In this document: positions 18,833 to 52,144 of the stretch, one piece after another
Layout of the letters: every line of letters begins with the position of its first letter
Position numbering within the stretch: the first letter of the stretch is position 1
Assembly: GCA_963718785.1 (NCBI GenBank)
Contig: CAVQZW010000007.1
Coordinates: forward strand, 3,303 to 67,302
DNA: 64,000 nt
DNA from: an uncultured Acidobacteriota bacterium
GTDB lineage: Bacteria > Acidobacteriota > Terriglobia > Acidiferrales > UBA7541
Direction of reading: 5' to 3'
The notes under the pieces: generated by a model
What the model was told of the DNA's origin: nothing
Database searches by the model: none
Seen by the model: only the letters and a program-made list of their open reading frames with translations
Position numbers and translations under genes: made by a program

Positions 18833-19138
18833 TTGAATACCTCCCGGAACTTCGCGAGATCCATTGGCTTCTACCATGAAGCCATCGCAATCCCAAATCG
18901 AATCGAAAAAGACCGCGGCCAGAAATCGTGCGTATTATCGCGGTCCCGCGTAGCCTCAACAATACACAAAAACGGGAAGACAAAATTGGCCACGCGCGAT
19001 AATCGGAGCTTTTGTAAAAATTCGACGCACGGGCCGCTGAAGAAATCGATGTCCGCGAGAATTCGGGCTGCAAACCCGGCCGCGATGGTATAACTTCGGT
19101 CTTTGTGACGCGAAGTGGCACGAGCAGGGAGAGACACG

Positions 19139-25532: not shown

Positions 25533-25643
25533 TTGCGGGAATTTGGCAGGAGCCATAGAATGCCCGGCGCGGCCGAAATTCGGACAGGTCTCATAATGAA
25601 CCGCACGATAACGCCATTAATGGGTTCAAGGGGGGCAGAACGT

Positions 25644-32017: not shown

Positions 32018-33052
32018 ATGTTTTTGCGCGACTACTGGTACGCGGCCGCCTGGGACCACGAGATCAAGCACGCGCCCCTCGCTCGAACGATCTGCGGCGA
32101 GCCGATTGTTTTCTATCGTCAAACGAACGGCGCCCTCAGCGCGTTTGAAGATTGCTGTCCGCATCGCCTGTTGCCGCTCTCGAAGGGATATCTGCAAGGG
32201 GACCATTTGATTTGCAAGTATCACGGGTTGGAATTTGACGAGTGCGGCCAATGCGTGTGGATGCCAGGACAGCAAGGCGTGCACAAAGACACGAAGATTG
32301 GAGTTTACCCAGTGGCGGAGCGGCATCGATTTGTGTGGGTGTGGATGGGAAGCCCGGAGCTAGCCGACGTGAGCAAGATTCCGAATTTTGGTTGGTGCTC
32401 GGACCCGAAATGGATTTTCGAAGGAAGCACTTACCACGTCAAATGCAGCGCGCAGCTCCTGGTAGACAATCTAATGGACTTGTCGCACGAAACCTACGTG
32501 CATCCTTCGAGTATCGGGCAACACGAAATCGTTGAAGCACCGATCAAGACGACATCGGATGAGAAATCCGTGACGGCCACGCGGTGGATGTACAACATCG
32601 ATCCGCCTCCGTTTTGGGCGGCAAATCTGAGGTCACATGAAAAATGCGACCGCTGGCAGATTTGTCATTTTTCGCTGCCGGCGAACGTGATGATTGACGT
32701 GGGCGTGGCGCTCGCGGGAACGGGGGCCCCGCAGGGTGACCGCTCCAAAGGGGTGACGGGTATTGTGGTGAATGTAATGACTCCGGAGACGGAAACGACG
32801 ACTTGGTATCACTGGGGGATGGCGCGGAACTTCCAGTTGGAGGACCGCGGTTTGACGTTTCGCATTCGAGACGCGCAGGCTTCTGTGTTTGCAGAGGATA
32901 TGGACATTTTGGAAGCGCAGCAGCAGAGCATTCTCCAGCGGGAAAATCGAAAGCTGCTGGATTTGAAGATTGATTCCGGCGGGGTTTATGCGCGACGGAT
33001 TGTGGATCGTGAATTGGCGCGGCAAGCGAGCGCAGTTGCTACGTCGCGTTGA
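32018..33052 (+). CDS. vanA: Vanillate O-demethylase-type Rieske oxygenase subunit
   Basis: CPHR...CKYHG Rieske motif; DNLMDLSHETYVH; EDMDILEAQQ. Confidence 0.88.
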   Translation: MFLRDYWYAAAWDHEIKHAPLARTICGEPIVFYRQTNGALSAFEDCCPHRLLPLSKGYLQGDHLICKYHGLEFDECGQCVWMPGQQGVHKDTKIGVYPVAERHRFVWVWMGSPELADVSKIPNFGWCSDPKWIFEGSTYHVKCSAQLLVDNLMDLSHETYVHPSSIGQHEIVEAPIKTTSDEKSVTATRWMYNIDPPPFWAANLRSHEKCDRWQICHFSLPANVMIDVGVALAGTGAPQGDRSKGVTGIVVNVMTPETETTTWYHWGMARNFQLEDRGLTFRIRDAQASVFAEDMDILEAQQQSILQRENRKLLDLKIDSGGVYARRIVDRELARQASAVATSR

Positions 33053-36649: not shown

Positions 36650-36885
36650 GGATACTCCTTGAGGCGCTGATTCGAAGATGCGCCACTCGATTCCACCCAG
36701 CTCTAAATTGCGGTTCGACAAGAACGCTGTTTTGCGCGGGCTATCTTTATATACTTCGCCGCGCTTCTTTCCAAGCAAAACGAATATCGCGCAGTCCTCA
36801 ATTCTCTAATTCGCTTGTTCCTCCAAAGAGTCTGTAATAGCTTTGTGCCCGCTTCGTTAGCTTCGCTGCCAAACGGAATAAGCAA

Positions 36886-37440
36886 ATGGACGAACTCATC
36901 AGCCTGGATCGCCGGGAAATTCTAAGAGCTACTACCGGCATTTTAGCGGGCCTGGTGGTGGCCGGAAGCCCTCTGGCGGCGATCGCGCGTGGGCGTGCGT
37001 GGGCAATTGATCTAACGGCATTCACGACTCCCGAGGGTGCCGCTCTCCTGGCTGCGGCGCGCACGATGATGCCACACGACAAACTCGATGACGCGGCTTA
37101 CGCTCTGGTCGTCCGTGCCATCGATGGTGATGCGAGCAAAGATGAACTGACCCGCAAGTTGTTTAAGGAAGGGGTCGAAAGTCTCGGAGGAGGATTTGCT
37201 ACGAGCACGGAGAATGAAAGAGTTGCTGAACTGAAAAAACTGGAGTTCTCTGAGTTTTTCAAGGCGATGCGGCTGAGGACAGTGCAAGTTCTTTATTCCA
37301 CGCCGCTCGCCTACGCTTATTTCGGCTATGAGGGCGAAGCATTCTCCAAAGGCGGATACCTTCTCCGCGGATTCAACGATCTGAAGTGGTTGCCAGAAGT
37401 GCCGTTTGGGGACAGCGGAACGATACCCGTCAGCAAGTAA
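36886..37440 (+). CDS. Tat-exported gluconate-2-dehydrogenase subunit-3-like partner of the GMC enzyme
   Basis: DRREIL twin-arginine signal; AYFGYEG...GGYL...DLKWLP C-terminus. Confidence 0.8.
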   Translation: MDELISLDRREILRATTGILAGLVVAGSPLAAIARGRAWAIDLTAFTTPEGAALLAAARTMMPHDKLDDAAYALVVRAIDGDASKDELTRKLFKEGVESLGGGFATSTENERVAELKKLEFSEFFKAMRLRTVQVLYSTPLAYAYFGYEGEAFSKGGYLLRGFNDLKWLPEVPFGDSGTIPVSK

Positions 37441-37458
37441 TTCACGGAAACTGCAAAT

Positions 37459-39027
37459 ATGCCTCGCATAGAATTCAACGACAGCAGCCCGGTAGTGATC
37501 ATTGGTTCCGGTGCGGGCGGCGGCACGCTTGCGCACGAACTGACACGGCGTGGCATCAAGGTTGTGCTGCTCGAAGCGGGCAAGCGCCAATCGCTTGAGA
37601 CATTTTCACAAGTGCCAGGAGAAGCTTTCGGCCAACTGACATGGCTTGATCCGCGAACGCAGAGCGGGAATTGGGGTGTTGCGCGCGACTTCCCTACTCT
37701 GCCCGCATGGCATTGCAAAACCGTTGGCGGGACAACGGTACATTGGACGGCTTCCACGCCGCGCCTGCAACCCTGGGAGATGCGGGCCAAAAGCACTTAC
37801 GGCAGCGTGCCGGGCGCTTCGTTGATTGACTGGCCAATTTCGTTCGAGGAACTCGAGAAATATTACGAAATCGCGGAACGCCGCATGGTTGTGACGCGGC
37901 GAAATGGTGTGCCAGGCCTGCCGGCTTCGAACAATTTCAAAGTCATGTACGCGGGAGCGAAGAAGCTCGGTTACAAGCAAGTGCACACAGGACACATGGC
38001 GATCAATTCGCGGGCCGCCGACGGGCGAGGCTTTTGTATCCAGCAAGGTTTCTGCGTGCAAGGCTGCAAAATGGGAGCTAAGTGGAGCACGCTGTACACG
38101 GAGATTCCACGAGCGGAAGCAACGGGCAATCTTGATCTGCGTGTAGAAGCGACGGCGACCCGGATTGAGCATGGAGCGGACGGCCGCGTGAACGCAGTCG
38201 TCTATCGAGACAAGCAGGGCCAGGAACAGCGGCAATCTGCTCGCTTGGTCTGTGTCGCGGGCAACGCCATTGAAACGGCCCGGTTGCTGCTGCTCTCGAC
38301 ATCTTCGAAATTTCCGCAGGGCCTCGCAAATTCCGCGGGCCAGGTCGGCCGAAACTATTGCCACCAGATCACCGGCTTCGTTTGGGGGATATTCGAAAAG
38401 CCTGTGCATTCGTGGCGAGGAGCGACGCTGGCAGGCGTTGTGGAAGACGAAGCAATCAACGATCCACGCCGCGGATTTGTCGGCGGCTACCGGATCGAAC
38501 TGCTTGCTTTGGACCTCCCTACTCTTCCACTGGTTGGTTTGCCCTACGGATGGGGCCGGGACTTCGCATCCATCATGGAAAATTATCGAAACATGGCCGG
38601 CATGTTCATTAACGGCGAGGACTTGCCTCGCGCGGAGAATCGCATCACGTTGAATTCAGGAGTGAAGGACGGCTTCGGCCTGCCCGTAGCCAATGTCCAC
38701 GTGGACGAGCATTCGAATGATCAATCCATGCGCAAACATGCGCAAGGACAAATGTCCAAAATGTATGATGCGATCGGCGCAAGACGGATCGTTCTCGGAC
38801 CGACACCACCGGCAACGCACAACCTTGGTACAGCACGCATGAGCGCCGATCCGCGGGATGGGGTGACGAACGCCTGGGGACAAACTCACGACATCAAGAA
38901 TCTGTTTATTTCCGATGGAAGCGCGTTGACCACTCCAGGTTCGGCAAATCCTACTCTGACCATTGTCGCGTTGGCGCTGCGGCAGGCGGAATACATCGCG
39001 CAACAAATGAAGGCGGCGAACATCTAA
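37459..39027 (+). CDS. GMC-family FAD oxidoreductase
   Basis: IIGSGAGGG, KTVGGTTVHW, ATHNLGTARM, NPTLTIVALALR. Confidence 0.92.
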   Translation: MPRIEFNDSSPVVIIGSGAGGGTLAHELTRRGIKVVLLEAGKRQSLETFSQVPGEAFGQLTWLDPRTQSGNWGVARDFPTLPAWHCKTVGGTTVHWTASTPRLQPWEMRAKSTYGSVPGASLIDWPISFEELEKYYEIAERRMVVTRRNGVPGLPASNNFKVMYAGAKKLGYKQVHTGHMAINSRAADGRGFCIQQGFCVQGCKMGAKWSTLYTEIPRAEATGNLDLRVEATATRIEHGADGRVNAVVYRDKQGQEQRQSARLVCVAGNAIETARLLLLSTSSKFPQGLANSAGQVGRNYCHQITGFVWGIFEKPVHSWRGATLAGVVEDEAINDPRRGFVGGYRIELLALDLPTLPLVGLPYGWGRDFASIMENYRNMAGMFINGEDLPRAENRITLNSGVKDGFGLPVANVHVDEHSNDQSMRKHAQGQMSKMYDAIGARRIVLGPTPPATHNLGTARMSADPRDGVTNAWGQTHDIKNLFISDGSALTTPGSANPTLTIVALALRQAEYIAQQMKAANI

Positions 39028-39101: not shown

Positions 39102-40103
39102 ATGATAACCAAGGCAGTTCGATTCCACGAATTTGGCGGCCCAGAGGTCCTTCGCTTTGAGTCACTGGAGGTCGGCGAGCCTGGGGCGGGCGAAGTGCGC
39201 GTGCGCGTAGAGGCGATCGGGCTGAACCGCGCCGAGGCTGCATTTCGGTCCGGCCGGTACATCGAGAGGGCGGTGTTGCCTGCGCGGCTGGGCTATGAAG
39301 CCGCGGGAATTATCGAGGCGCTTGGCGACGGAGTGAAAGGCTATTCGGTCGGCGAGCAGATTTGCGTGATGCCATCCTTTTCGATGAACAAATACGGTGT
39401 GTACGCGGAGTGCGCCATCCTTCCAGCTTCCGCCATACTAAAACGCCCTGCGGGATTAGGCACGCAAGCGTGCGCATCCATCTGGATGCAGTATTTGACC
39501 GCTTACGGCGCGCTCATCGACATATCCCAAATCGGCGCGGGCGACGCGGTAATCATTACCGCAGCTTCAAGCAGCGTTGGGATCGCCGCGATTCAAATCG
39601 CAAACCACGTCGGCGCAACATCGATTGCCGTGACGCGAACGGCTGCCAAGGAAGCGGAACTGCGAAAATTGGGCGCGGCTCATGTCATCGTTACGGAAAG
39701 GCAGACGCTGGAGAAGGAAGTTCTCCGCATTACCGCCGACAAGGGAGCGAAGGTGGCTTTCGATCCGATTGCGGGACCAATCGTTGTTTCGCTCGCTGCA
39801 GCAATGGCTCGGGGAGGCCGGCTGATTTTGTACGGAAATCTTAGCGGAGAGGCGCAGAACACGATTTTCCCGTTTGGACTCTCCATGTCTCGAGGCTTCA
39901 GCATGCGCGCGTATGTTGTGTTCGAAATCATTGGCGACGCGCAGCGGTTTGAGAAGGCGCGGCTCTTTGTCGAAGAAGGATTACGTGCAGGCTGGCTGAA
40001 ACCTGTCATTGCGAAGACGTTTCCCTTCGACCAGATGGTCGAGGCGCACCGCTATTTGGAAGGCAACGCGCAAATCGGAAAGGTGATTGTCACCGTTCCC
40101 TGA
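39102..40103 (+). CDS. MDR-family NADPH:quinone oxidoreductase-like protein
   Basis: FGGPEVL, IGLNRAE, LGYEAAG, AASSSVG, IGKVIV. Confidence 0.9.
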   Translation: MITKAVRFHEFGGPEVLRFESLEVGEPGAGEVRVRVEAIGLNRAEAAFRSGRYIERAVLPARLGYEAAGIIEALGDGVKGYSVGEQICVMPSFSMNKYGVYAECAILPASAILKRPAGLGTQACASIWMQYLTAYGALIDISQIGAGDAVIITAASSSVGIAAIQIANHVGATSIAVTRTAAKEAELRKLGAAHVIVTERQTLEKEVLRITADKGAKVAFDPIAGPIVVSLAAAMARGGRLILYGNLSGEAQNTIFPFGLSMSRGFSMRAYVVFEIIGDAQRFEKARLFVEEGLRAGWLKPVIAKTFPFDQMVEAHRYLEGNAQIGKVIVTVP

Positions 40104-40156: not shown

Positions 40157-41038
40157 CTAAAGGGAAGCCGCGGAACCACCGAGTCCGAGCAACCGGCAAG
40201 CGTTCTTTTTGAGAATAAGCGAATGGACTTCCGGCCGGAAGCCAGCTTGCTTGAAATCCTCCATCCAGCGGTCAGGAGTGATCAACGGAAAATCCGTGCC
40301 GAAAAGTATTTTGTGCTTGAGCAAAGTGTTGGCGTGCTGCACCAGCGAAGGGGAAAAATATTTGGGCGACCAGCCAGAAAGGTCGATGTAAACGTTTGGT
40401 TTGTGGAGGCAAACGGAAAGAGCTTCGTCCTGCCACGGCCACGAAGGATGGGCGATTACAATTTTCATTTGCGGGAAATCCGCGGCAACATCATCCAGAT
40501 GCATGGGGTTTGAGTATTTCAGCCGCAGCCCTCCCCCGCCGGGCATTCCAGTACCCATGCCGGAATGTCCGCTATGGAAAATCGCCGGGAGTCCGTGTTC
40601 GGCGATGACTTCGTACATCGGATAGGCCATACGATCGTTCGGAAAAAAACCCTGGCAAGTTGGATGGAATTTGAATCCCTTCACACCATGATCGGCGAAC
40701 AGGCGACGCATTTCGCGCACGCCGAGCTTGCCTTTGTGGGGATCAACGCTGGCGAAAGCGATCATGATGTCGGGATTCGCCGCTGCGGCTTCCGCCACTT
40801 CTTCGTTGGGAATTCGCCGACGGCCCATTTCGAACTCGCTATCCACCGAGAACATGACCAGCCCAATTTTGCGGCTGCGATAGTATTCGATGGTCTCTGC
40901 GATGGTCGGAAGTTTTCCAGACTTGAAGTATTTCACCTTCGCGTCATCGAATTCCTTGCCGAATTCGTCGAACGGCTGATGACAAGAGACTTCTGCGTGG
41001 GTGTGAACATCGATGGCAACGAGTTCCGCTACGTTCAT
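40157..41038 (-). CDS. couO: Amidohydrolase_2, CouO-like 4-hydroxyphenyl-beta-ketoacyl-CoA hydrolase (HpeF-equivalent)
   Basis: AIDVHTHAE, FKFHP, FHSGHSGMG, AHPSWPWQDEA, DLSGWSPKYF, FGTDFP. Confidence 0.8.
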   Translation of the reverse strand: MNVAELVAIDVHTHAEVSCHQPFDEFGKEFDDAKVKYFKSGKLPTIAETIEYYRSRKIGLVMFSVDSEFEMGRRRIPNEEVAEAAAANPDIMIAFASVDPHKGKLGVREMRRLFADHGVKGFKFHPTCQGFFPNDRMAYPMYEVIAEHGLPAIFHSGHSGMGTGMPGGGGLRLKYSNPMHLDDVAADFPQMKIVIAHPSWPWQDEALSVCLHKPNVYIDLSGWSPKYFSPSLVQHANTLLKHKILFGTDFPLITPDRWMEDFKQAGFRPEVHSLILKKNACRLLGLGGSAASL

Positions 41039-41913
41039 GATTGGCCTTTGTAGAGCGAGAGAAGTTCGCCCACGTCGTGGACGGATAGATGTGGACGCTG
41101 TTTCTTTGGCAAGTGCGCGTAGGAATCGGCCGCGCCAACGCCAGTGCTAACCGCCACAGCCAGCGCACCGCCGCGGAGCGCCATGGGGATTTCCAGCGAA
41201 GGATCATCGCCGACTACGGCGAGTTCTTTAGTGCGCAGGCCGAGTTGCCGGGCCGCGCACCACAACGCCTCGAGCGATGGCTTGCCGATGACATGTATGC
41301 GAGCGCCGGTGAGATCCTTGATCATCGCGGAGATCGCACGCGAAGTGCCAAGTGCTTTACCGTTGGCCGTGGCGAAAAAAAGGGACTGCGAGCAGCTATA
41401 GACCTTCGCGCCGCTCCATGCCGCGTAGCAAGCGGCTTCCAGCGCGCTCATTGTGAATTCACGGAACCAGCCGACCAGCACGGTGTCGACTTCGGGTTTG
41501 CCCTCCGGCTCCACAATTTCCATGCCCGCATCGCGGAGAGGTTTCTGGAGGCCGTCGCCGCCCAGCGCAAGCACGCGTTTGTAACCGCAGCGGCGAAAAT
41601 AATCGGCCGCGCTGCTTGCCGGCGTCATCACGCCATTGTCCGGGAGGGGAAAACCAACGTCGCGGAGCATTCCGACATATTCCCGCGGTGTTCGCGCCGT
41701 TCCATTGGTAAACAGAACGAATGGCACCCCGCGTCCTTCGAGAAACCGCGTGATTTCCAGCGCTCCAGGCAGCGGTTTTAGGCCGTGATTGCTCTTGTCG
41801 CCCAGAACCAGAGTACCGTCCATATCGAACAGAAAACCACGCGAATGACGCAATCGTTTGATTGCGGCAAGGGGATGCGCGGGAACACCGGGCTTTGCGA
41901 CTTTCTTAGGCAC
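41035..41913 (-). CDS. HAD-IIA (NagD-like) phosphatase (HpeD/AcvF-equivalent)
   Basis: FDMDGTL, FTNGT, GKPS, VVGDD; GTG 41913 overlaps the upstream stop. Confidence 0.88.
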   Translation of the reverse strand: MPKKVAKPGVPAHPLAAIKRLRHSRGFLFDMDGTLVLGDKSNHGLKPLPGALEITRFLEGRGVPFVLFTNGTARTPREYVGMLRDVGFPLPDNGVMTPASSAADYFRRCGYKRVLALGGDGLQKPLRDAGMEIVEPEGKPEVDTVLVGWFREFTMSALEAACYAAWSGAKVYSCSQSLFFATANGKALGTSRAISAMIKDLTGARIHVIGKPSLEALWCAARQLGLRTKELAVVGDDPSLEIPMALRGGALAVAVSTGVGAADSYAHLPKKQRPHLSVHDVGELLSLYKGQS

Positions 41914-43393
41914 TAGCTGCCTCGCGCTCTGGCGAACTGCGCAGCTCCAAACGGAAATCGCGTTTTTCAATGACGATATGGGAAGCCTTGGGGCGGATCT
42001 GCAGTCCGCGCAGTAGTTTGAAAACGGGCTGCATGTCCGGATTGTAATGCCGACGCGCGGGGCCGGCGACCAGCATCGCGTCCACTTCTTGCGCAGGCAT
42101 CGCCGCGCGCAGTAAGAACTCATCGTCAGAAATTCCGGGCGCGAACTGCTTGCGCAATTCTTCTGGCGGTAACGGCAGCGGTTCGGCCGCCAACTCTTTG
42201 GCACGCGGGCGATTGAGAATGAGGTCCTTCACGTTCTCATCCACTGGGACGGTGGGGCGGCCGAATCTTCCGAGCACGTAGCGGATCACTTGGTCGGAAA
42301 CGTTGCCATAGCGCTCGGAACCGATGATGTTATAAAGCGCCTGCGTGCAAACGATCTGCGGGAACGGCGTGACCATGATCGGGTAACCAAGCTCGGCGCG
42401 AACCTGGACGACTTCGCGCATGACATCGGCAAATCTGTTTTCAAAGCCCAGTTCGGCAAGCTGGCGACGCGTCGTGGTCAAAACGCCGCCGGCGACCTGG
42501 TGGCGCAGGAACGAGGCATCGTATTCTTGCGGCGTACCCGCCGGGAGATTCTCCGCTTCTGTCAGCCGCGCGAAGTAGTCGGCGACCTTCGCGAGTGCGC
42601 GATCGTCGACGTTGACTGTGTGGCCCAGCTCACGCAGATTTGCCACCACTCTCTGTGCATTGGGGAGCGAAGATCCGTTCGCCAGCGGGCCACAGGCGAC
42701 TTGCAAGACTTCCACACCGAGCTCCGCCGCAACCATATAGCTAATGGGCGAAAGGCCAATCGTACAATGCGAATGAAGTTCCAGGGGCTTTGCGCCCAGT
42801 TGCGCACGAACTGCGGGAATCAGAGTGCGCGCGCGCTCGGGCCTCAGCAGCCCTGACGGGTCCTTTATATAAGCACGATCGACGTGCGGTGATTTCGCCA
42901 CTCGCGCGGCAAGCTTAGCGTAGAACCCGTCGTCGTGCACGTCGCTGATGGTATATGTCAGGGCCGCGATAATCTCCGTGGCGCCAGCTTTTCGAATCAT
43001 CCGCGCGGACTCGAGCAAAGCTTCGACATCATGCATTGGATCAAGAACGACAAATCGCGAGATCCCATTGGCGACCAGCCGGTCATAGACGATCTGCATG
43101 AAATCGGGATGCTGGCCTTCCCAAGAGATGAAGCGGAGTCCAGTGCCAATGAACTGCAGCGGCGTATTGGGCATCGCAGAGCGCGCCAGGCGAATGCGTT
43201 CCCAAGGATTTTCCTTGTGCGTTCGCACGGCAACGCCCATGTGCGTGCTCGATGTAAAGTCCAGCGCGCGGAATCCCACACGATCCATCACGGGAGCAAT
43301 CGCCAGGATTTGCGAGGTTGTAAATCCAATCGCCCCCCACAAACTCTGGTTGCCGTCCCGTATTGAAACATCGAGAAGTTGAATGTCCGCCAT
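41906..43393 (-). CDS. Carboxyltransferase subunit, PycB/OadA-like, without a biotinyl domain (HpeA/AcvE-equivalent)
   Basis: DVSIRDGNQSL, YIKDPSG, HSHCT, YPIMVTPFPQIV. Confidence 0.88.
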   Translation of the reverse strand: MADIQLLDVSIRDGNQSLWGAIGFTTSQILAIAPVMDRVGFRALDFTSSTHMGVAVRTHKENPWERIRLARSAMPNTPLQFIGTGLRFISWEGQHPDFMQIVYDRLVANGISRFVVLDPMHDVEALLESARMIRKAGATEIIAALTYTISDVHDDGFYAKLAARVAKSPHVDRAYIKDPSGLLRPERARTLIPAVRAQLGAKPLELHSHCTIGLSPISYMVAAELGVEVLQVACGPLANGSSLPNAQRVVANLRELGHTVNVDDRALAKVADYFARLTEAENLPAGTPQEYDASFLRHQVAGGVLTTTRRQLAELGFENRFADVMREVVQVRAELGYPIMVTPFPQIVCTQALYNIIGSERYGNVSDQVIRYVLGRFGRPTVPVDENVKDLILNRPRAKELAAEPLPLPPEELRKQFAPGISDDEFLLRAAMPAQEVDAMLVAGPARRHYNPDMQPVFKLLRGLQIRPKASHIVIEKRDFRLELRSSPEREAASA

Positions 43394-43429
43394 TTCAGTC
43401 CGTGGCACCAAGCGCTTTATTCCGTGTTC

Positions 43430-44788
43430 TCACGCTGCCCCCATATTTCTATTCTGGAGGAATTGCCCCAGGAAAGCAGTGTTCATACCGCCGCGAGCAA
43501 ATTCGCTTTCCCGCATCAACTCGGCATGCATCAGCAGATTTGTGGAGACACCTATGATCTCCATGTTTGCAAGAGCTTGACGCATTTTGCGAAGCGATTC
43601 TTTCCGGTCCGCGCCATGAATGATCAGCTTGCCCAGGAGCGAGTCGTAAAAAGGAGGCACTTTCGAACCCGCTTGGATGTGCGTGTCCATGCGAATTCCC
43701 TGTCCTGCTGGAAAAACGGCATGCGTCACCGTACCGGGGCTCGGACAAAAATCATGTTCCCAGTCTTCCGCGTTGATGCGGCACTCGATGGCGTGGCCGG
43801 AGAACTTCAGTTCATCCTGCTTCCAGCGCAGCTTGCGGCCCTCGGCGACGGCGATCTGCTCCTCCACGAGATCCAGACCACAAATCGCCTCCGTAACAGG
43901 GTGCTCGACTTGGATTCGTGCGTTCATTTCCAAAAAATAAAATGCGTCGCGATCGCAATCCACGAGAAATTCCACAGTGCCCATTCCCCGGTATTTCAGG
44001 TGTCTCGCGAAGGCAACAGCCGCGAGATGCATCTCCTCGCGAAGAGTTTCGCTGATATTCGGGGCCGGCGCTTCTTCCACAAGTTTTTGGTAGCGCCGCT
44101 GAACTGAGCAGTCGCGCGTGCCGAGGTGAATCACATTTTCGCCGTCGCCAAGCACTTGCACTTCGATGTGGCGGCCATGCGAGATAAAGCGCTCGACGTA
44201 TAGACGCGGATCGCCGAAGCTTGCCAGTGCTTCCGCTGTCGCCAATTCCATCGCCTCAGCTAGCTTGCCGGCGTCAGTTACTTGTTTCATGCCGCGGCCG
44301 CCGCCACCGCCAACGGCCTTAATCAGGATTGGCCAGCCAATCTTGTCGGCAAGCTGCCGCGCTTCAACGAGGCTCCGCACTTCGCCGCCGGGAACGCCAT
44401 GTAGTCCCGCGGCAGTGGCGTGCGCACGGGCTTTAAGTTTGTCGCCAACGGCATCGAGCTGCTCGACCGTAGGACCGATGAAGAAGATCCCAGCATGGTT
44501 GCATGCGGAGGCGAATCTTTGATTCTCGGAAAGAAAACCGTACCCGGGATGAATCGCATCGGCCTTGCTCGCCACAGCGGCGGCGACGATTGCTTCCACG
44601 TTTAAGTAGCTGGCAGCGGAATTTGCCGGACCTATGCAAATCGTGCTGTCAGCCAGTCTCGCCCCCATGGAATCCAGATCCGCTTCGGATGCAGCCAGTA
44701 CAGTTTCAATGCCGAGGGTCTGGCAAGTTCGAATCACGCGCACGGCGATTTCGCCGCGATTGGCGATCAGGATGCGCCGCAGCGTCAT
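43430..44788 (-). CDS. accC: Biotin carboxylase subunit (HpeB/AcvD-equivalent)
   Basis: LIANRGEIAVR, HPGYGFLSEN, GGGGRGM, EMNARIQVEHPVTE, YDSLLGKLI. Confidence 0.95.
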   Translation of the reverse strand: MTLRRILIANRGEIAVRVIRTCQTLGIETVLAASEADLDSMGARLADSTICIGPANSAASYLNVEAIVAAAVASKADAIHPGYGFLSENQRFASACNHAGIFFIGPTVEQLDAVGDKLKARAHATAAGLHGVPGGEVRSLVEARQLADKIGWPILIKAVGGGGGRGMKQVTDAGKLAEAMELATAEALASFGDPRLYVERFISHGRHIEVQVLGDGENVIHLGTRDCSVQRRYQKLVEEAPAPNISETLREEMHLAAVAFARHLKYRGMGTVEFLVDCDRDAFYFLEMNARIQVEHPVTEAICGLDLVEEQIAVAEGRKLRWKQDELKFSGHAIECRINAEDWEHDFCPSPGTVTHAVFPAGQGIRMDTHIQAGSKVPPFYDSLLGKLIIHGADRKESLRKMRQALANMEIIGVSTNLLMHAELMRESEFARGGMNTAFLGQFLQNRNMGAA

Positions 44789-45282
44789 GCGACTCCCGGC
44801 TTGATGCGCATCAATACTGCATCCTTCTCGGCAAACTGCGCGTTGTCGCAGCAAATCTCGACGACTTCGCCGCACGTTTCTGCGTGAACCGCGTTCATCA
44901 GTTTCATCGTCTCGATGATGCCTACGACTGTGTCCGCTTCCACCTGACTCCCGATTTCAACGAACGGAAGAGCCCCCGGCTTTGGTGCGCGATAAAACGT
45001 GCCCGGAAGGTGTGCGCGAACGTCCGTCCACACAACGTCGCGTGGGTCTCGTGGAGCTTTCGCAGCCGATGGAGCGGCGCTGTTCAGAACGGCGGACAAA
45101 TCAGGCGAGCCCTGCACTACATTCGGCGCCGAGAGCACTTGAGTTTCCTGAGTCCAGTCTCCGCTGGCGAGGTTGCGGCGTAGCGTCAGCTTGAAGCGCT
45201 CGGTTTCCAGATGCAGCTCATCATATTTCGCAGCGTCGAGCAGTTGCAGAATCTGCTGCACATCCTCGTTGGTTAACTTCAT
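44785..45282 (-). CDS. accB: Biotin carboxyl carrier protein (HpeC/AcvC-equivalent)
   Basis: GTFYRAPKPGA; IIETMKLM biotinylation motif. Confidence 0.93.
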   Translation of the reverse strand: MKLTNEDVQQILQLLDAAKYDELHLETERFKLTLRRNLASGDWTQETQVLSAPNVVQGSPDLSAVLNSAAPSAAKAPRDPRDVVWTDVRAHLPGTFYRAPKPGALPFVEIGSQVEADTVVGIIETMKLMNAVHAETCGEVVEICCDNAQFAEKDAVLMRIKPGVA

Positions 45283-46364
45283 TTTTTTCCGGCTCCTCCG
45301 CTGAGGAGCGAAAACACATGATCGAATGGTTTGCCTTTAGGCGCGGCCACCGGCGCCGCATCCTTTGCTGCCCAAACCGTTTCCGGCCGGCTCTGCAACA
45401 GAAACACATTTTCGCTTGGCGGACAATTCCGCGCGATGGCCCACTCGATATCTTGTGGGCAGCCATAATGACGCTCGACCCGCTTCGCAATGTCAACGAG
45501 GCTGTGGAGCTCGTCGTCGCTAAGGCATGGAGCGTTTTGCTTCTCAACCGGGACTTCTTCGTCGATCACTCCTGCGCCCGCCGCGTTGGGCCGGTGCTGG
45601 CGCAACTTGCATGACACCGTGCGGCTCATAATCTCGCCAGTAATCTTCCCGACGACATATTTGTCAGGCGTGACTTCCCCACTGACAACAGCCGAGCCCA
45701 ACCCCCAGCTTGCCTCCACCACCACGACGGAACGATCACCCGTGTTCGGGCTTCGCGTGAATATCACTCCAGAGCAGCGCGAGTCGATCATGCGCTGAAT
45801 CACCACTCCCATCGCCAAACCCTGTTCGGGCAACTTCAATCTCCGTCGGTACATCACCGACTCCACCGCGTACAAACTTGCCCAGCATTTGCGCACGTGT
45901 TCGATGACAGAATCAGCGCCGCGCACCCAGAGGTACGTGTCTTGCAGTCCAGCGAAACTCGCATCGGCGCTGTCCTCGCTCGTTGCGCTCGAGCGAATAG
46001 CAACCGGCTCACCCGGCCCGTCGTTGCCGGCACGTGTTTGAAGTTCTTCATAGTGCGCGCTTATATTCGTTTGCAAATCCTCGGGCAATGCCGCGCTTTC
46101 GAGTCGTACCCTCACTTCAACTCCGACGCGCGAGCAAGCAGCGTGATCATCTGGCGCCAATTGTTCGATTTCGCGCCGTATCGAGCCAGCGGGATCAATG
46201 GCCGTCAAGAACCGCTCAAAGGCCGCCGTCGTCACTACACACCCAGGCGGCACGCGAATGCCCGCGCGGGCCAATTCTCCGAGACTGGCGCCTTTGCCGC
46301 CGACGGTCGGCCGGTCAGCAATGCCGATTTCCTCGAAGCGGCTTATGAGATTATGACTCGTCAA
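45279..46364 (-). CDS. Stand-alone PEP/pyruvate-binding ATP-grasp subunit, phenylphosphate synthase beta-like (HpeI/AcvB-equivalent)
   Basis: VGGKGASLGEL, AIRSSATSEDSADASFAG, PQDIEWAI, LLQSRPET; no swivel or pyruvate domain. Confidence 0.88.
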   Translation of the reverse strand: MTSHNLISRFEEIGIADRPTVGGKGASLGELARAGIRVPPGCVVTTAAFERFLTAIDPAGSIRREIEQLAPDDHAACSRVGVEVRVRLESAALPEDLQTNISAHYEELQTRAGNDGPGEPVAIRSSATSEDSADASFAGLQDTYLWVRGADSVIEHVRKCWASLYAVESVMYRRRLKLPEQGLAMGVVIQRMIDSRCSGVIFTRSPNTGDRSVVVVEASWGLGSAVVSGEVTPDKYVVGKITGEIMSRTVSCKLRQHRPNAAGAGVIDEEVPVEKQNAPCLSDDELHSLVDIAKRVERHYGCPQDIEWAIARNCPPSENVFLLQSRPETVWAAKDAAPVAAPKGKPFDHVFSLLSGGAGKK

Positions 46365-46376
46365 ATCGATCCTCTC

Positions 46377-48200
46377 TTAATCCAGAATCCACACGATCCC
46401 GCGGTTTCCATCCACTCGAAGCCGTTGCCCCGTCTTAATGCGCTGCGTGGCTTGGCCAGTACCGACCACGGCAGGCAATCCATATTCGCGCGCGACGATC
46501 GCAGCGTGAGACATTGTCCCGCCAATGTCGGAGACTGCCGCCTTTATTTTGCCGAAGACCGGCCCCCAACTCGGCGCGGTCACGGGACAAACCAAAATTT
46601 CGCCTTCGCGAATCTGCCCGATCTCGTTCACGTTTTTAAGCACGCGCGCAATGCCTTCCACGACGCCGGGTGACGCTGCAAATCCGACAATTTCATTTTC
46701 ATGTCCGGCTTCTACCGTCGCCGACCAGGATTCCAAGGTCTCCGAAGTGATTCCCCAAAGCATCTGTAAAGCAGGGTCGTTGATCTGCGGAGGAATCGGC
46801 CCCAGAGCTGGCGGCGGGTTCCATTCCTTCAACCTCTCGACGATACATTTGCGCGCTTCCACAATCGGACGCCAGTGAGCAGCGCCAAGTGGTTTGCCGC
46901 CGCCCGCCCACGCAAGACTCACGTCGGCCAGCGCGCGCTCGACCTCGACGTACTGCAAATGAAACACGTCGCTCGCATCGGCCAGCACTCCATAAGTAAC
47001 CAGCAACGCGCCGAATTCCTTCACTTTCTTGAAGAAAAGGCTCGTGAACCAATGCTCGCAATAAAATTTGTGGTTCTCCACGAACGGAAAGACGAGGTGA
47101 GATAGGCCGAGCATCTGATCGAACGCCTGCCGCTCCTCTTCGCTCATCAGCAACTCACGATACTCGGCGATGATGCGCCCGCGTTCTTCTTTCAGCCGTT
47201 CCGTGGGGCGTTCCAGGGATTCGCCGCGCCGCAACTGTTCCACATAGCGTGGCAAAGCCGCGAACGGAACAGACAGATCGTCATTCCAGCTCAAGTGATG
47301 GTGATAGAAACCATCTCCCGTGGACATGTTGAACCACGGCTCGCGCGACTTATCGAGTTCAGTCAGCCACCGCTTGCCGGCATCCCCACGGCCACCCAGC
47401 TCATGCAGCACCTTTTTCGCATCGCAATCGGCAGTAAACAAATCGTCCACACCAAACTCAATGGCTAATTTCGCCAGGCGCTTAAGCTCGTCGTCCGGCC
47501 GGAACATCAGCACGTCGATGCCGGCCACCATTCGCGCCACCGTCTGATCTGCCGTCTCCGGGAAAGCTTTCTTGCAAAAATCGAAAAACACCATGTAGGC
47601 GCCATAACCCAGCATCAACATTTCGAAATGGTGGTGCCACATTTTGGAGAACAACTCGATCGTGCGGTGAAAATTCTCGCGGATGTAATGGTTTTGGCCC
47701 AGCCCCTTCGCCTTCGTCACCACTTCCGCTTCATCGAACTCCGGCAACATCGGCACCTTGATCGCTTCGAGTTCGTGGATCAGATTCTCCATGCGAACTT
47801 TCCACTCGCCGAATATCCGGTTCCAATTCTCGTAGTAGTAGCCGGCCCGCTCCTGGAAAATCGCAAGCCGCCGCTGAATCTCCGCCGGATCGGTAACCGG
47901 GTTCGCCGTAATGTAAATGCGGCCGTTGACGATACGGTGCTCAATGCCCATCGTCGTCGGGAACACAAAAATGCGCGTCGTAAACGCGCCGAGTGCCTCG
48001 TAAGGAATCTCCGCTGTCAGCGCATCGAACGCTGGCATCGGCTCGGGAAAGTGCATCGCGTTATAAAACCAGAAGCGCTGATCATCTTCGGGCTGAAACC
48101 GCGTGTAATACGGATACATCGACTGCCAGCCCTCCGTGCCCGGTACATCGGCTATTTGGGAAGGCAACGTAAAGCTGCGGCTCTTGCTATCAACGCCCAT
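46377..48200 (-). CDS. Substrate-binding + phosphohistidine swivel subunit, phenylphosphate synthase alpha-like (HpeH/AcvA-equivalent)
   Basis: C-terminal GFAASPGVVEG...DIGGTMSHAAIVAREYGLPAVVG; N-terminal WFYNAMHFPEP. Confidence 0.88.
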   Translation of the reverse strand: MGVDSKSRSFTLPSQIADVPGTEGWQSMYPYYTRFQPEDDQRFWFYNAMHFPEPMPAFDALTAEIPYEALGAFTTRIFVFPTTMGIEHRIVNGRIYITANPVTDPAEIQRRLAIFQERAGYYYENWNRIFGEWKVRMENLIHELEAIKVPMLPEFDEAEVVTKAKGLGQNHYIRENFHRTIELFSKMWHHHFEMLMLGYGAYMVFFDFCKKAFPETADQTVARMVAGIDVLMFRPDDELKRLAKLAIEFGVDDLFTADCDAKKVLHELGGRGDAGKRWLTELDKSREPWFNMSTGDGFYHHHLSWNDDLSVPFAALPRYVEQLRRGESLERPTERLKEERGRIIAEYRELLMSEEERQAFDQMLGLSHLVFPFVENHKFYCEHWFTSLFFKKVKEFGALLVTYGVLADASDVFHLQYVEVERALADVSLAWAGGGKPLGAAHWRPIVEARKCIVERLKEWNPPPALGPIPPQINDPALQMLWGITSETLESWSATVEAGHENEIVGFAASPGVVEGIARVLKNVNEIGQIREGEILVCPVTAPSWGPVFGKIKAAVSDIGGTMSHAAIVAREYGLPAVVGTGQATQRIKTGQRLRVDGNRGIVWILD

Positions 48201-50286
48201 CGTTTCTCTCCAAAACCGACACCTCGCCGCCAACACTGGCCAACGATGGATTTGCGGCAAGCGAATAGTCCTTTTGCGCCTTCGCGTAATTCACAAAAAA
48301 TTCGAGCGAGTCCGGATTGGCCATGGCATTGCGGTTGGCGGCTCGTTCTAGCGGCACGCCCATCAAAATCTTGCGCACCGGTACTTCCATTTTCTTGCGC
48401 GTGAGCGTCATGGGAATTCCCGGCGCTTGGATGATCCGGTCCGGCACATGCCGCGCCGTATATTCGTGCCTGAGCCGCTCGCAGATTTTCTGCTCAAGCT
48501 CCGCACTTAACTGGATCCCGTCCATTAGCTTTACAAATAGCGGCATAAAGAACTTGCCGCCCGGCAAATCGAGATTCACAACCAATGCGTCTTCGACTTC
48601 ATGGACGTGCGCAATGGCCCGGTAAATTTCCGCGGTGCCGATACGCACTCCCAGACGGTTCAGCGTCGCATCCGATCTTCCCAGCACGAAGCAACCGCCG
48701 CGCTCGTTGACGCGGAAGAAATCGCCATGCCTCCACACCCCGGGATAGACATCGAAATAAGATTCGCGATAACGCGATCCATCCTTGTCTCCCCAAAAGT
48801 AGATGGGCATCGAAGGCAAAGGCTCGGTTAGCACGAGTTCCCCCACCTCGTCTACCACGCTCTCGCCCTTCTCGTTGAACGCATACGCCGCCACACCCAG
48901 CGAGCGCCCCTGTATCTCCCCTGCATACACGGGCTGCGTCGGCACGCCGCCAACAAACCCGGTGCAGCAATCCGTACCGCCACTGCCCGTTGCAACCAGC
49001 AAATCCTGTTTTACGTTCCGATAGAACCACGCCGTGCACTCTGGCGACACCGGCGAACCCGCGGGCATGACCGCTCGAAGATGCGACAAATCGAACCTCT
49101 CACGCGGAACGATGCCAGCCTTGGCCATTACTTCGACGTACGCTGGACTCGCGCCGAAGAAACTCGCCTTCGAATCCTGAGCGACCTTCCAGAGCACATC
49201 CGGCGCCGGATAAGCGGGGTTCCCGTCGTACAGAACCGGGCACACACCGCTCAGCGGCATGCTCGCCAGAAAATTCCACATCATCCATCCCGAAGTCGTG
49301 AAGAAAAACGCGCGCTCCCCCGCGCGGTAGTCCATATGAAAATGCTGCAGCTTGAGTTGTTCCAACAAAATGCCGCCGTGACTCTGCACAATCGCCTTCG
49401 GCAAACCGGTCGTGCCCGAAGAAAACAGCACCCACAGCGGGTGGCCAAACGGGACCTGGTCGAAGTGGAATTCCTCGCGCGAAACGCCGGCATGTTCCAT
49501 CAAATCGTTCCAACGCAGCGCCCCCTCGCGCGGAAACGTGTGATCCTCGGCATTCAAATAGGGCACGTGGACGACATGTTCGAGACCATCCAGCGCCGCA
49601 ATGATTTCTCCGAGCTCCTCTTTTCGGTCGAATGCCTTTCCGCCGTATCTGTAGCCGTCGACGCAGAAAAGTACTTTCGGCGAAAGCTGTTGTATCCGGT
49701 CGATCACACCGCTCGAACCAAAGTCCGGCGAGCAACACGCCCAGATTGCGCCAATCGCAGTCGTGGCCAGCATCGCGATCATTGTCTGAGGAATATTCGG
49801 CATGAACGCCACGACCCGGTCGCCGGGCCGCACACCCAATTCGCGCAGCCGCGTCGCCAAAATACGTACATGTCCGCCAAACGCTTCCCACGGCAAGCCG
49901 GTCAGCGGCGCAGTCTCACTCATGAACAAAAGCGCGTCGGTGCCCGCCCGCTCGTTTCGTAGAACGTGTTGCGCATAGTTGAGCCGCGCGCCAGGAAACC
50001 ATTCCGCCCCCGGCATCTCGCGCTTGCCCAGCACACGAGTGTGCGGCGCGGACGACTCAATGCCGAAGTAGTCCCAAATCGCCTGCCAAAATTCTTCCAA
50101 TTCGGTGACGGACCAACGCCACAGCGAGTCGTAATTTGCGAAATACAATCCCCTCTCGCGCACCAGCCACTTCGCAAACCGCGTTAAGTTTGCATCTTCA
50201 ATCTGGGCGGCACTCGGCGTCCAGAGTAGTTCGCCTTCGCGAACGCCACGAGTCCCCGCCAGTATCTCGGCTGCGCTCTTCGTCAT
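48190..50286 (-). CDS. Acetoacetate-CoA ligase-family acyl-CoA synthetase (HpeE-equivalent by position)
   Basis: FPGARLNYA, LFSSGTTGLPK, TTSGWMMWNF, SGGTD, WRHGD, GRSDATLN, KKMEVPV. Confidence 0.92.
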   Translation of the reverse strand: MTKSAAEILAGTRGVREGELLWTPSAAQIEDANLTRFAKWLVRERGLYFANYDSLWRWSVTELEEFWQAIWDYFGIESSAPHTRVLGKREMPGAEWFPGARLNYAQHVLRNERAGTDALLFMSETAPLTGLPWEAFGGHVRILATRLRELGVRPGDRVVAFMPNIPQTMIAMLATTAIGAIWACCSPDFGSSGVIDRIQQLSPKVLFCVDGYRYGGKAFDRKEELGEIIAALDGLEHVVHVPYLNAEDHTFPREGALRWNDLMEHAGVSREEFHFDQVPFGHPLWVLFSSGTTGLPKAIVQSHGGILLEQLKLQHFHMDYRAGERAFFFTTSGWMMWNFLASMPLSGVCPVLYDGNPAYPAPDVLWKVAQDSKASFFGASPAYVEVMAKAGIVPRERFDLSHLRAVMPAGSPVSPECTAWFYRNVKQDLLVATGSGGTDCCTGFVGGVPTQPVYAGEIQGRSLGVAAYAFNEKGESVVDEVGELVLTEPLPSMPIYFWGDKDGSRYRESYFDVYPGVWRHGDFFRVNERGGCFVLGRSDATLNRLGVRIGTAEIYRAIAHVHEVEDALVVNLDLPGGKFFMPLFVKLMDGIQLSAELEQKICERLRHEYTARHVPDRIIQAPGIPMTLTRKKMEVPVRKILMGVPLERAANRNAMANPDSLEFFVNYAKAQKDYSLAANPSLASVGGEVSVLERNDGR

Positions 50287-50626
50287 CCGTTCAGTTCCCT
50301 GCGTTTCGGAATGTCGTCCGATATTGACGCCACAATTCTGCTCCGATGCAATTTCGCATGTGGGCGTTTATCGATTGCTTCCCGCCATCCGCGTCTGCTA
50401 TGTCAAGCGAACGCATTGTGTGTTCGCCGAAGCGGGTTGTCAATCCAGTCGCCGCGTTGACAAGCCCCTGCCGCTAGTCTTAAATGTCCACCGTGAACGT
50501 TCACGATAAGCGATACCGCACCTTTTTTGCCGCGGTTCTGGAAGCAGTTCTCGCCTGACCAGGTCGCGTTCGAGAATCGTGTTTCGGTGAAGTCACACGC
50601 AATTCTTAGTCTAGAAGGGGGGCTTT

Positions 50627-52144
50627 ATTCCTATCCTCGGCATCGACGTCGGCACCAGCGGAACCCGCGCGGTTATCCTCGACGGAAGCGGCACGGTCCT
50701 CGCCTCGGGCACCGAAGAACACGCACAGTTCGCCAGCCCGCAGCCAGGCTGGGCAGAGCAAGATCCCCGCGACTGGTGGCGTGCGGCGGCCCTCGCGGTT
50801 CGCAAAGCGCTTCATGCCTCCGGCCTCGCCGCCGATGCCATCGCCGCCGTCGGTTTCTCCGGCCAGATGCATGGCGCTGTCCTGCTCGATGAGAAAGACG
50901 AGGTCATCCGCCCTGCCCTCATCTGGTGTGATCAACGCACCGAAGCGCAATCCAAAGAACTCGAGCGCACTATCGGCCTCGACCGCCTTATCCAACTGAC
51001 CTGCAATCCCCCACTCACAAACTTCACGCTCACTAAACTTCTTTGGGTCCGCGAACACGAGCCGCAAAATTGGCAGTGCGTCCGCAAAATTATGCTGCCT
51101 AAGGACTACGTCCGTCTGCGCCTCACGGGCGAATCCGCCATCGATGTCGCCGACGCTTCCGGCACGCTGCTCCTCGATGTAACGCACCGCATCTGGTCAA
51201 GCGAAGTCCTCAACAAAACCGGCATCGACGTGAACCTTCTCCCCAAGCTTTACGAATCCCAGGAAATTTGCGGCAACCTTTCTGCAGCAGGAGCGGAAGC
51301 AACCGGATTGCGAGCAGGAACTCCAGTCGTAGCCGGCGCAGGCGATCAAGCTGCCGGTGCTGTCGGTATGGGCATCACGCGCGCGGGAGTCGTCAGCGCC
51401 ACGATCGGAACTTCCGGCGTGGTTTTTGCGGCCACCGATCGCCCTTCGCTTGATCCCAAAGGCCGCCTCCACACTTTCTGTCACGCCATTCCCGGCCGCT
51501 GGCACGTCATGGGTGTAACGCAATCCGCCGGCTTGTCTCTTCGCTGGTTCCGCGATCGCTTTGGCGCTGGCCCTGACGACGGCCGCGATCCGTATGAACG
51601 AATGTCCGCCGAAGCCGCAACCGTTCCGGCTGGATCCGAAGGCGCGTTCTGGGCGCCCTACTTGATGGGGGAACGAACGCCACATCTCGATCCGTTCGCA
51701 CGCGCCGCCTTCGTCGGCCTCTCCGCTTCGCACACTCGCGCGCATCTGATCCGCGCGGTTCTCGAAGGCGTGGCCTACAGCCTGAAAGACACTTTTAGCA
51801 TTTTTAACGAAATCTACGTCCCCGTGGAACGCATCCGCCTCGGCGGAGGAGGCGCCCGCTCGCCACTCTGGCAACAGATTCAAGCGGATGTCTATGCACA
51901 CGAAGTGGAAATTCTGAAAGCGGAAGAAGGCGCAGCCTACGGCGCGGCAATCCTTGCGGGCGTGGGTTCAGGTGTTTGGAAGAGTGTCGATGAAGCTTGC
52001 GACGCCACGGTCAACGTTGCGAAACGCGTTAGCGCCAGCAAAGAAAACAGTGCTGCTATGCAGCGCAGCTACAAAACCTACCGCCGGATCTATCCGGCGT
52101 TACATTGTATTTTTGCTGAGAATCAATCTTCGTCTGCTCACTAA
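50627..52144 (+). CDS. xylB: Xylulokinase (apparent ATT start)
   Basis: ILGIDVGTSG, EQDPRDWW, GFSGQMHG, GAGDQAAGA, GTSGV, PYLMGERTPH, LGGGGARS. Confidence 0.9.
   Translation: MPILGIDVGTSGTRAVILDGSGTVLASGTEEHAQFASPQPGWAEQDPRDWWRAAALAVRKALHASGLAADAIAAVGFSGQMHGAVLLDEKDEVIRPALIWCDQRTEAQSKELERTIGLDRLIQLTCNPPLTNFTLTKLLWVREHEPQNWQCVRKIMLPKDYVRLRLTGESAIDVADASGTLLLDVTHRIWSSEVLNKTGIDVNLLPKLYESQEICGNLSAAGAEATGLRAGTPVVAGAGDQAAGAVGMGITRAGVVSATIGTSGVVFAATDRPSLDPKGRLHTFCHAIPGRWHVMGVTQSAGLSLRWFRDRFGAGPDDGRDPYERMSAEAATVPAGSEGAFWAPYLMGERTPHLDPFARAAFVGLSASHTRAHLIRAVLEGVAYSLKDTFSIFNEIYVPVERIRLGGGGARSPLWQQIQADVYAHEVEILKAEEGAAYGAAILAGVGSGVWKSVDEACDATVNVAKRVSASKENSAAMQRSYKTYRRIYPALHCIFAENQSSSAH

Follow-up and report, generated by a model that had tools for sequence, protein, structure and literature searches.

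The 64,000-nucleotide stretch of DNA considered here (assembly GCA_963718785.1, contig CAVQZW010000007.1, positions 3,303 to 67,302; below, the window) belongs to an uncultured acidobacterium and contains eight genes that most probably constitute one operon for the Hpe/Acv-type catabolism of para-hydroxyphenyl methyl ketones (4-hydroxyacetophenone, acetovanillone, possibly acetosyringone). By homology, 4-hydroxyacetophenone and acetovanillone would be converted to 4-hydroxybenzoate and vanillate, respectively, with formation of acetyl-CoA. The pathway was first described in 2022, as hpe in Rhodococcus rhodochrous GD02 (Dexter et al. 2022, PMC9618137) and as acvABCDEF in Sphingobium sp. SYK-6 (Higuchi et al. 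2022, bioRxiv 10.1101/2022.04.28.489975). The same reading was offered in the initial annotation of the window and, at the level of sequence comparison, is well supported by reciprocal best hits, catalytic motifs, the clade of the carboxyltransferase, conservation and genomic context.

Listing of open reading frames and inspection of start codons and ribosome sites placed all eight genes on the minus strand (50286-40157). From the 5' end of the operon, they are:

48190-50286, minus strand: HpeE-like beta-ketoacid CoA ligase of the acetoacetyl-CoA-synthetase family, operon gene 1 (NF002937, 926 bits; TIGR01217, 806 bits)
46377-48200, minus strand: HpeH/AcvA-like kinase alpha, substrate-binding and His-swivel subunit, 607 aa (PEP-utilizers domain; NF006153, 821 bits)
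45279-46364, minus strand: HpeI/AcvB-like kinase beta, ATP-grasp subunit, 361 aa, TTG start (stand-alone PPDK_N, 347 bits)
44785-45282, minus strand: biotin carboxyl carrier protein (BCCP), HpeC/AcvC-like (Biotin_lipoyl; TIGR00531, 107 bits, under the cut-off)
43430-44788, minus strand: biotin carboxylase subunit, complete (Biotin_carb_N, CPSase_L_D2, Biotin_carb_C)
41906-43393, minus strand: PycB-like carboxyltransferase of the Hpe/Acv clade (PYC_OADA and HMGL-like)
41035-41913, minus strand: HAD-IIA phosphatase, HpeD/AcvF-like, GTG start, directly 3' of the carboxyltransferase gene (Hydrolase_6, Hydrolase_like)
40157-41038, minus strand: HpeF/CouO-like beta-ketoacyl-CoA hydrolase, operon gene 8 (Amidohydro_2 PF04909, 173 bits)

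From the ligase to the hydrolase, the genes follow one another with an 11-nt overlap, a 12-nt gap, two ATGA junctions, a 36-nt gap, an 8-nt overlap and one more ATGA. This exactly matches the arrangement first annotated, and co-transcription of the genes is presumed. The domain families initially assigned to the eight products were likewise confirmed with Pfam and NCBIfam. In kinase alpha the sole domain match is the C-terminal PEP-utilizers swivel, and the PRK08296 models carry the name 'hypothetical protein'. The operon occurs in a single copy in the 6.0-Mb genome, and its ligase is the sole member of the family encoded there.

The catalytic motifs, which had been considered intact, were checked by pattern matching and are all present. 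The swivel motif of kinase alpha, SDIGGTMSH (SDIGGIMCH in GD02), fits the pattern T/SxxGGxxxH, including the catalytic histidine and a methionine two residues ahead of it. HpeH requires its swivel histidine, His581 (PMC12167813). The biotinyl-lysine motif of BCCP is IIETMKLMN (IIEVMKLMN in GD02). The biotin carboxylase carries GGGGRGM and EMNARIQVEH, the phosphatase FDMDGT, GKP and VVGDD, the ligase SSGTTGLPK, and the hydrolase the metal motif DVHTH. The carboxyltransferase contains RDGNQSLWG, IKDPSG and HSHCT. The first of these is common to the carboxyltransferases of GD02, Actinomadura macra, a Rhizobium plasmid, Pseudomonas putida YC-AE1 and Sphingomonas bisphenolicum AO1, whereas PycB-like outgroups have RDGPQS, RDGQQS or RDAHQS instead.

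By analogy with the characterised systems, the following substrates and order of steps may be proposed. The ATP-grasp beta subunit would phosphorylate the swivel histidine of kinase alpha at the expense of ATP, and kinase alpha would hand the phosphoryl group on to the phenolic oxygen. BCCP, the biotin carboxylase and the PycB-like carboxyltransferase would then carboxylate the methyl group of the aryl-phosphate ketone, yielding phospho-aroylacetate, from which the HAD-IIA phosphatase would take off the phosphate. The acetoacetyl-CoA-synthetase-like ligase would form the beta-ketoacyl-CoA, and the CouO-like amidohydrolase would cleave it to 4-hydroxybenzoate or vanillate and acetyl-CoA. Finally, PobA, a VanA-like oxygenase and PcaHG, encoded at some distance, would turn the aromatic acids into protocatechuate and cleave its ring.

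The window was compared directly with two reference loci, hpeHICBADEF of GD02 (CP083974.1, holding UZF45673.1) and the cluster of A. macra NBRC 14102, which has been functionally tested (PMC13101465); for SYK-6, published identities were used. Each of the eight proteins and its counterpart in GD02 HpeHICBADEF are reciprocal best hits, every GD02 Hpe protein finding its top match in the genome within the window cluster, so that a check suggested at the outset comes out positive both ways for eight of eight. Identity to GD02 is 43% for the ligase and HpeE (655 aa), 49% for HpeH, 44% for HpeI, 47% for the biotin carboxylase, 44% for the carboxyltransferase (UZF45673.1), 34% for HpeD and 52% for HpeF. 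The values for A. macra are similar, with 61% for the hydrolase; the phosphatase shares 34-37% with HpeD of GD02 and A. macra. In the Protein Data Bank (PDB), the top match of kinase beta is 9GOJ (E 5e-80), whose aligned fragment occurs in GD02 HpeI; searches with kinase alpha, the carboxyltransferase and the hydrolase returned distant generic relatives only. The enzymology of HpeHI and the structure of HpeI were published in 2025 (PMC12167813).

The GD02 locus encodes, in this order, BCCP, a biotin carboxylase (463 aa) and a PYC_OADA/HMGL-like carboxyltransferase (527 aa, UZF45673.1). Since the gene order is hpeC-B-A, HpeB is the biotin carboxylase and HpeA the carboxyltransferase. These two labels are swapped in Table 1 of PMC9618137; the assignment of apkB and apkA by Higuchi et al. 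agrees with the locus order.

All eight genes are under purifying selection, with dN/dS of 0.02-0.16 in comparison with four relatives. The most conserved one is the hydrolase gene (0.02-0.03). Because of these values, and because the same order recurs in nine other Acidobacteriota representatives, the arrangement is not due to chance.

Gene names alone would suggest ordinary central metabolism, that is, a phosphoenolpyruvate (PEP) synthase, an acetyl-CoA or pyruvate carboxylase, an oxaloacetate decarboxylase, NagD and an acetoacetate-CoA ligase. Such names as 'oxaloacetate decarboxylase alpha subunit', 'biotin carboxyl carrier protein' and 'acetoacetate--CoA ligase' are indeed found in the databases, and the prediction that automated annotation would scatter these genes holds for both family-model and source names. 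However, the PEP-synthase-like protein is split and has no PEP/pyruvate-binding domain. The carboxyltransferase scores under all PycB and OadA equivalog cut-offs of NCBIfam and is only 27% identical to the pyruvate-carboxylase-type carboxyltransferase of the same genome, which also holds further copies of the biotin carboxylase and BCCP outside the operon. Moreover, the gene set is patchy, being present in 24 of 260 species of the genus, which is unexpected for core metabolism. Domain architecture, phylogeny and distribution together effectively refute this possibility, and we consider it hardly credible.

Phylogenetically, the carboxylase is clearly of the Hpe/Acv kind. In a tree of 91 carboxyltransferases, 87 Hpe/Acv-like sequences form one clade with 100% SH-aLRT support, apart from four PycB-like outgroups. 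The window protein falls within an Acidobacteriota clade (99%), which adjoins carboxyltransferases linked to the alternative kinase MarK in Pseudomonas, Aromatoleum, Rubrivivax and Geobacter. Kinase alpha belongs to an Acidobacteriota clade (100%) nested in a clade of 44 kinases (99%), all 44 of which are carboxylase-linked. Outside this clade are the GD02 HpeH clade, PpsA of Azoarcus KH32C, encoded beside ppcBDAG, and a CreH-like protein of Rhodococcus, encoded beside a P450 gene. Thus the expected grouping with Hpe/Acv proteins stands for the carboxyltransferase; for the kinase, placement relative to PpsA and CreH is unsupported.

The two trees give the acidobacterial genes different partners. 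In the kinase tree, unlike the carboxyltransferase tree, their neighbours are HpeHI-type genes of Burkholderiales and Actinomycetota. Moreover, carboxyltransferases linked to MarK are intermixed with those linked to HpeHI. The discrepancy between the trees suggests that kinase modules may have been repeatedly swapped between carboxylase clusters.

Four observations weigh against the assignment to hydroxyphenyl ketone catabolism. Firstly, the proteins are only 34-53% identical to the characterised enzymes. However, AcvE of SYK-6 and the GD02 carboxyltransferase share only 42% (bioRxiv 10.1101/2022.04.28.489975), and therefore this divergence lies inside the spread of two validated systems. Secondly, the order among the 44-kinase clade, the GD02 HpeH clade and PpsA is unsupported in a tree with one Pps and one Cre representative and the CreH-like protein as outgroup; an AU test of the topology that unites all carboxylase-linked kinases in a single clade returned p = 0.05. 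As this basal branching is unsettled, the substrate assignment of the kinase rests on genomic context more than on phylogeny. Thirdly, an adjacent regulator was sought at the window operon and at one related acidobacterial locus, and none was found. Finally, the rest of the beta-ketoadipate pathway is encoded outside the window, with pcaB and pcaD, both over the cut-offs, on another contig (C9).

The second of these points bears on the possibility that the kinase is a phenylphosphate synthase or a Cre-type alkylphenol kinase, that the carboxylase acts on something other than an aryl ketone, and that the pathway merely resembles Hpe. Kinase alpha is 46% identical to the PpsA-like protein of Azoarcus KH32C and 41% to the CreH-like one, as compared with 49% to HpeH, and the unsupported basal branching leaves room for such an assignment. 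On the other hand, there is no UbiD-type ppcABCD in the operon or its annotated flanks, whereas the control locus of Azoarcus KH32C has it, and no Cre P450 or dehydrogenase genes lie nearby, unlike the situation at the Rhodococcus CreH-like locus. The kinase genes overlap or abut a complete Hpe-clade set of carboxylase, phosphatase, ligase and hydrolase genes, and the carboxylase linkage of every kinase in the clade points the same way. Such a different pathway is very unlikely here.

A scan of 185,579 species genomes revealed at least 568 encoding a relative of the carboxyltransferase; gene layouts were examined in the best 80. Among these 80 are nine Acidobacteriota metagenome-assembled genomes (MAGs) with the same genes in the same order (carboxyltransferase identity 85-94%), one contig stopping short of the ligase gene. 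The ligase-first order had been considered a novelty, but it is the most frequent layout in the nearest 80 species representatives and occurs on a P. putida plasmid as well. Together with a two-component kinase it is the rule in Streptomyces, Blastococcus, Geodermatophilus, Prauserella muralis and Streptosporangiaceae MAGs. The GD02 gene order occurs in a Rhizobium plasmid and Rhodococcus sp. JS3073.

Phylum-wide, the operon is present in one of 401 evenly sampled Acidobacteriota genomes, namely, that of the window. Within the genus, 24 of 260 species representatives match, 20 of them at 79-94% identity and three being of a 53-54% type. The same eight-gene operon is found in the 20 other species (21 of 260 including the window genome) and in many soil metagenome contigs. 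The genomes of the genus coincide with MAGs labelled Candidatus Acidoferrum or Candidatus Acidiferrum, and thus the host is an acidobacterium, as had been supposed, of the class Terriglobia and the order Candidatus Acidiferrales.

The 53-54% type represents a second kind of locus, seen twice in the same acidobacterial family. It encodes kinase alpha, kinase beta, BCCP, biotin carboxylase, carboxyltransferase and the HAD phosphatase at 53-63% identity. This acv-like cluster of six genes lacks a ligase gene and extends to a sister genus; one of the loci has a hydrolase gene about 3 kb away.

The claim of a new lineage stands in part. No paper naming Acidobacteria in connection with this pathway was found in the literature searched. 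However, the operon occurs in the 20 further species of the genus, and the pathway has already been described as spread over the bacterial phylogeny, with Alphaproteobacteria, Actinomycetota and Bacillota named (PMC12624787). That 2025 study introduced MarK and surveyed 17,510 genomes, of which 25 had colocalised clusters with the two-component kinase; published surveys drew on RefSeq representatives (PMC12624787).

The genes to the left of the operon and the region upstream of it are:

39102-40103, plus strand: quinone-oxidoreductase-type MDR dehydrogenase, convergent with the operon (ADH_zinc_N, ADH_N; TIGR02824 under the cut-off)
36886-39027, plus strand: small protein of the twin-arginine type (DRREILR..., faint Gluconate_2-dh3) and GMC oxidoreductase, beside the operon in only 4 of 10 acidobacterial loci
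34505-36778, minus strand: pyrroloquinoline quinone (PQQ)-dependent alcohol dehydrogenase with a C-terminal cytochrome c domain (TIGR03075, 658 bits, over the cut-off; Cytochrome_CBB3)
32018-33052, plus strand: VanA-like Rieske oxygenase, candidate oxygenase of vanillate O-demethylase (Rieske and VanA_C, 172 bits; no NCBIfam equivalog cut-off reached)
30970-31878, divergent to the VanA-like gene: IclR regulator
29903-31387, minus strand: MetE-like (Meth_synt_2) protein, beside the IclR and VanA-like genes, co-occurring with the operon in several relatives
25533-26935, plus strand: PcaH and PcaG, protocatechuate 3,4-dioxygenase (TIGR02422, 336 bits; TIGR02423, 217 bits; over the cut-offs)
19115-20755, plus strand: benzoylformate decarboxylase (NF005485, 616 bits, over the equivalog cut-off)
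17238-18413, minus strand: PobA, 4-hydroxybenzoate 3-monooxygenase (TIGR02360, 574 bits, over the cut-off)
13587-15721: two transposase genes, DDE_Tnp_1 and IS3-type rve integrase
50287-50505, minus strand: putative promoter/operator region 5' of the ligase gene, predicted from sequence only

An MFS transporter, an aldehyde dehydrogenase, a second IclR regulator (by PcaHG) and a TonB-dependent receptor are also encoded further left of the operon. The genes of PobA, the VanA-like oxygenase and PcaHG lie at 7-22 kb from it. Together with pcaB and pcaD they make up a host gene set for vanillate and 4-hydroxybenzoate degradation via protocatechuate, with the VanA-like oxygenase as a candidate member. 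The lower funnel, initially thought to be fully linked to the operon, is therefore linked only as far as PobA, the VanA-like oxygenase and PcaHG, the two pca genes being on the other contig. The transposase genes and a step in G+C content (from 0.50 to 0.55-0.58) mark the left edge of an aromatic-catabolism island reaching the operon. Just left of this edge is a candidate defence gene (10806-13481, minus strand) encoding an 891-aa protein with a TOTE conflict-system archaeo-eukaryotic primase and a ResIII/DEAD helicase.

The same neighbourhood bears on the possibility that the enzymology is as proposed and the physiological substrate is a different one: acetosyringone, 4-hydroxypropiophenone, a ketone derived from moss, or mainly a beta-keto acid of the vanilloyl acetic acid type. 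In the last case the acid would originate from beta-O-4 or side-chain oxidation, and two inputs would feed into the ligase and hydrolase. Vanilloyl acetic acid is an intermediate common to beta-aryl-ether and acetovanillone catabolism in SYK-6 (bioRxiv 10.1101/2022.04.28.489975), and ketones or beta-keto acids could be produced by the nearby PQQ and MDR dehydrogenases, which are conserved, and the GMC oxidoreductase, which is variable. The moderate identity to the characterised enzymes and the separation of the kinase clade from GD02 HpeH are also consistent with another substrate, and HpeHI is broad, accepting aldehydes, acetosyringone and phenol (PMC12167813). Nevertheless, this is unlikely: the window, GD02 and A. 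macra share the clade-specific carboxyltransferase motif, the linked PobA and VanA-like genes suit 4-hydroxybenzoate and vanillate as products, and no syringate-specific gene was identified. Thus 4-hydroxyacetophenone and acetovanillone are retained as the predicted substrates.

The MDR dehydrogenase gene adjoins the hydrolase gene in nine of nine Acidobacteriota loci, and the PQQ alcohol dehydrogenase gene is kept in the same proportion. The latter enzyme, a quinohaemoprotein, is likely to be periplasmic, judging by its class, and pqqC was found in the genome. The small protein and the GMC oxidoreductase look like a two-subunit dehydrogenase exported via the twin-arginine (Tat) route. A tentative and rather doubtful extension of the pathway would make the Candidatus Acidiferrum operon part of a larger conserved module with the PQQ and MDR dehydrogenases. 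This module would supply ring-cleavage substrates from free 4-hydroxyacetophenone as well as from the benzylic secondary alcohols 1-(4-hydroxyphenyl)ethanol and apocynol. If so, the oxidation of alcohols at its front end would extend the pathway in a way not yet described, and a subset of the abundant uncultured acidobacteria of peat and soil would be dedicated consumers of phenolic ketones derived from moss and lignin.

The ligase gene is separated by 340 bp from a divergent FGGY sugar kinase gene. In the putative promoter/operator region there is a sigma-70-like site TTGACA-17-CACAAT (50443-50415); such sites are no commoner than by chance. Inverted repeats at 50426-50474 and 50407-50427 overlap this site, and a 14-bp palindrome CGTGAACGTTCACG occupies 50492-50505. 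Any regulatory role of these elements is conjectural. The region is conserved with the closest relative only, and other acidobacterial loci carry another conserved upstream sequence. The IclR operator TTCACCnGGTGAA was sought 5' of the operon and is absent there, and a terminator scan yielded nothing exceeding chance. A minus-strand open reading frame at 50606-51187 ('orf193') was rejected as a gene, being antisense to the sugar kinase gene. The sugar kinase gene (about 50620-52144, plus strand) is intact. It probably has a non-canonical start codon, because the conserved N-terminus ILGIDVGTSG is encoded 5' of the first ATG, GTG or TTG.

If the prediction is correct, a recently discovered pathway for lignin ketones extends to Acidobacteriota, a dominant but poorly cultured phylum of soil and peat. 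The compact ligase-first version of the operon with eight genes is a widespread natural form. Oxidation of sphagnum acid, a compound bound in Sphagnum cell walls, yields 4-hydroxyacetophenone (PMC7010833), and possibly uncultured soil and peat Acidiferrum use 4-hydroxyacetophenone from this source. The annotation of genes now named oxaloacetate decarboxylase, PEP synthase, NagD and the like would be improved, and the divergent self-contained operons could be a source for strains intended for lignin valorisation. Knowledge of the pathway mechanism is unchanged, and the added value is mainly taxonomic and ecological.

Among the closest known systems are the Hpe clusters. As in the window, all eight functions in GD02 and A. 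macra are encoded by single genes in one co-oriented cluster, with the swivel-histidine, biotinyl-lysine, RDGNQSLWG, HAD and amidohydrolase motifs in common. The gene order is H-I-C-B-A-D-E-F in GD02 and E-H-I-C-B-A-D-F, with the ligase first, in the window. In the kinase and carboxyltransferase trees alike, long branches set the proteins of GD02 and A. macra apart. The residue preceding the catalytic histidine is serine in the window and cysteine in GD02 HpeH, whose C580S variant is active (PMC12167813). The GD02 cluster, from a Rhodococcus rather than an acidobacterium, is flanked by an IclR pair and transposases, whereas the window operon has no such flanks.

In acv of SYK-6, the genes of the kinase pair, BCCP, biotin carboxylase, carboxyltransferase and HAD phosphatase follow in the same relative order as in the window. 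However, SYK-6 has no homologues of HpeE and HpeF and uses the unlinked VceA and VceB, whereas the window has both genes in the operon. The AraC-type regulator AcvR of SYK-6 has no adjacent counterpart in the window.

The plasmid pRB98 of Rhodococcus oxybenzonivorans (NZ_CP021355.1, 553327-568760) encodes an AMP-binding ligase, a fused PPDK_N and swivel dikinase (579 aa), BCCP, a biotin carboxylase, a carboxyltransferase (36% to that of the window, with RDGPQS), an OB-fold protein, a thiolase and a protein of the tyrosine phosphatase family. This locus may be an analogous system of phosphorylation, carboxylation and thiolysis acting on another substrate.

The ligase-first clusters of Actinomycetota and Burkholderiales share with the window the order of ligase, kinase alpha, kinase beta, BCCP, biotin carboxylase, carboxyltransferase and HAD phosphatase, at 55-75% identity, and their kinase alphas belong to the same 99% clade. 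Unlike the window, most of them have no detectable hydrolase gene 3' of the phosphatase gene; in two, it is upstream on the opposite strand. No experimental work on these clusters was found in the literature searched.

In the marK-acvCDEF clusters (Hall et al. 2025, PMC12624787), a single Tm-1-like/UPF0261 kinase takes the place of the two-component HpeHI-type kinase seen in the window, and a tblastn search of the window genome with the MarK-like protein of P. putida YC-AE1 gave no match. The plasmid of the latter strain (NZ_CP047312.1) is ligase-first and has the same tail as the window, consisting of BCCP, biotin carboxylase, carboxyltransferase, HAD phosphatase and amidohydrolase. Its carboxyltransferase is 72% identical to that of the window, its biotin carboxylase 71%, its hydrolase 80% and its ligase 69%. 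In favour of the proposed assignment, carboxyltransferase homologues at 59-72% occur in the same carboxylase-phosphatase modules on the plasmids of P. putida YC-AE1 and S. bisphenolicum AO1 (pBAR1). Both strains degrade bisphenol A, and they do so via 4-hydroxyacetophenone.

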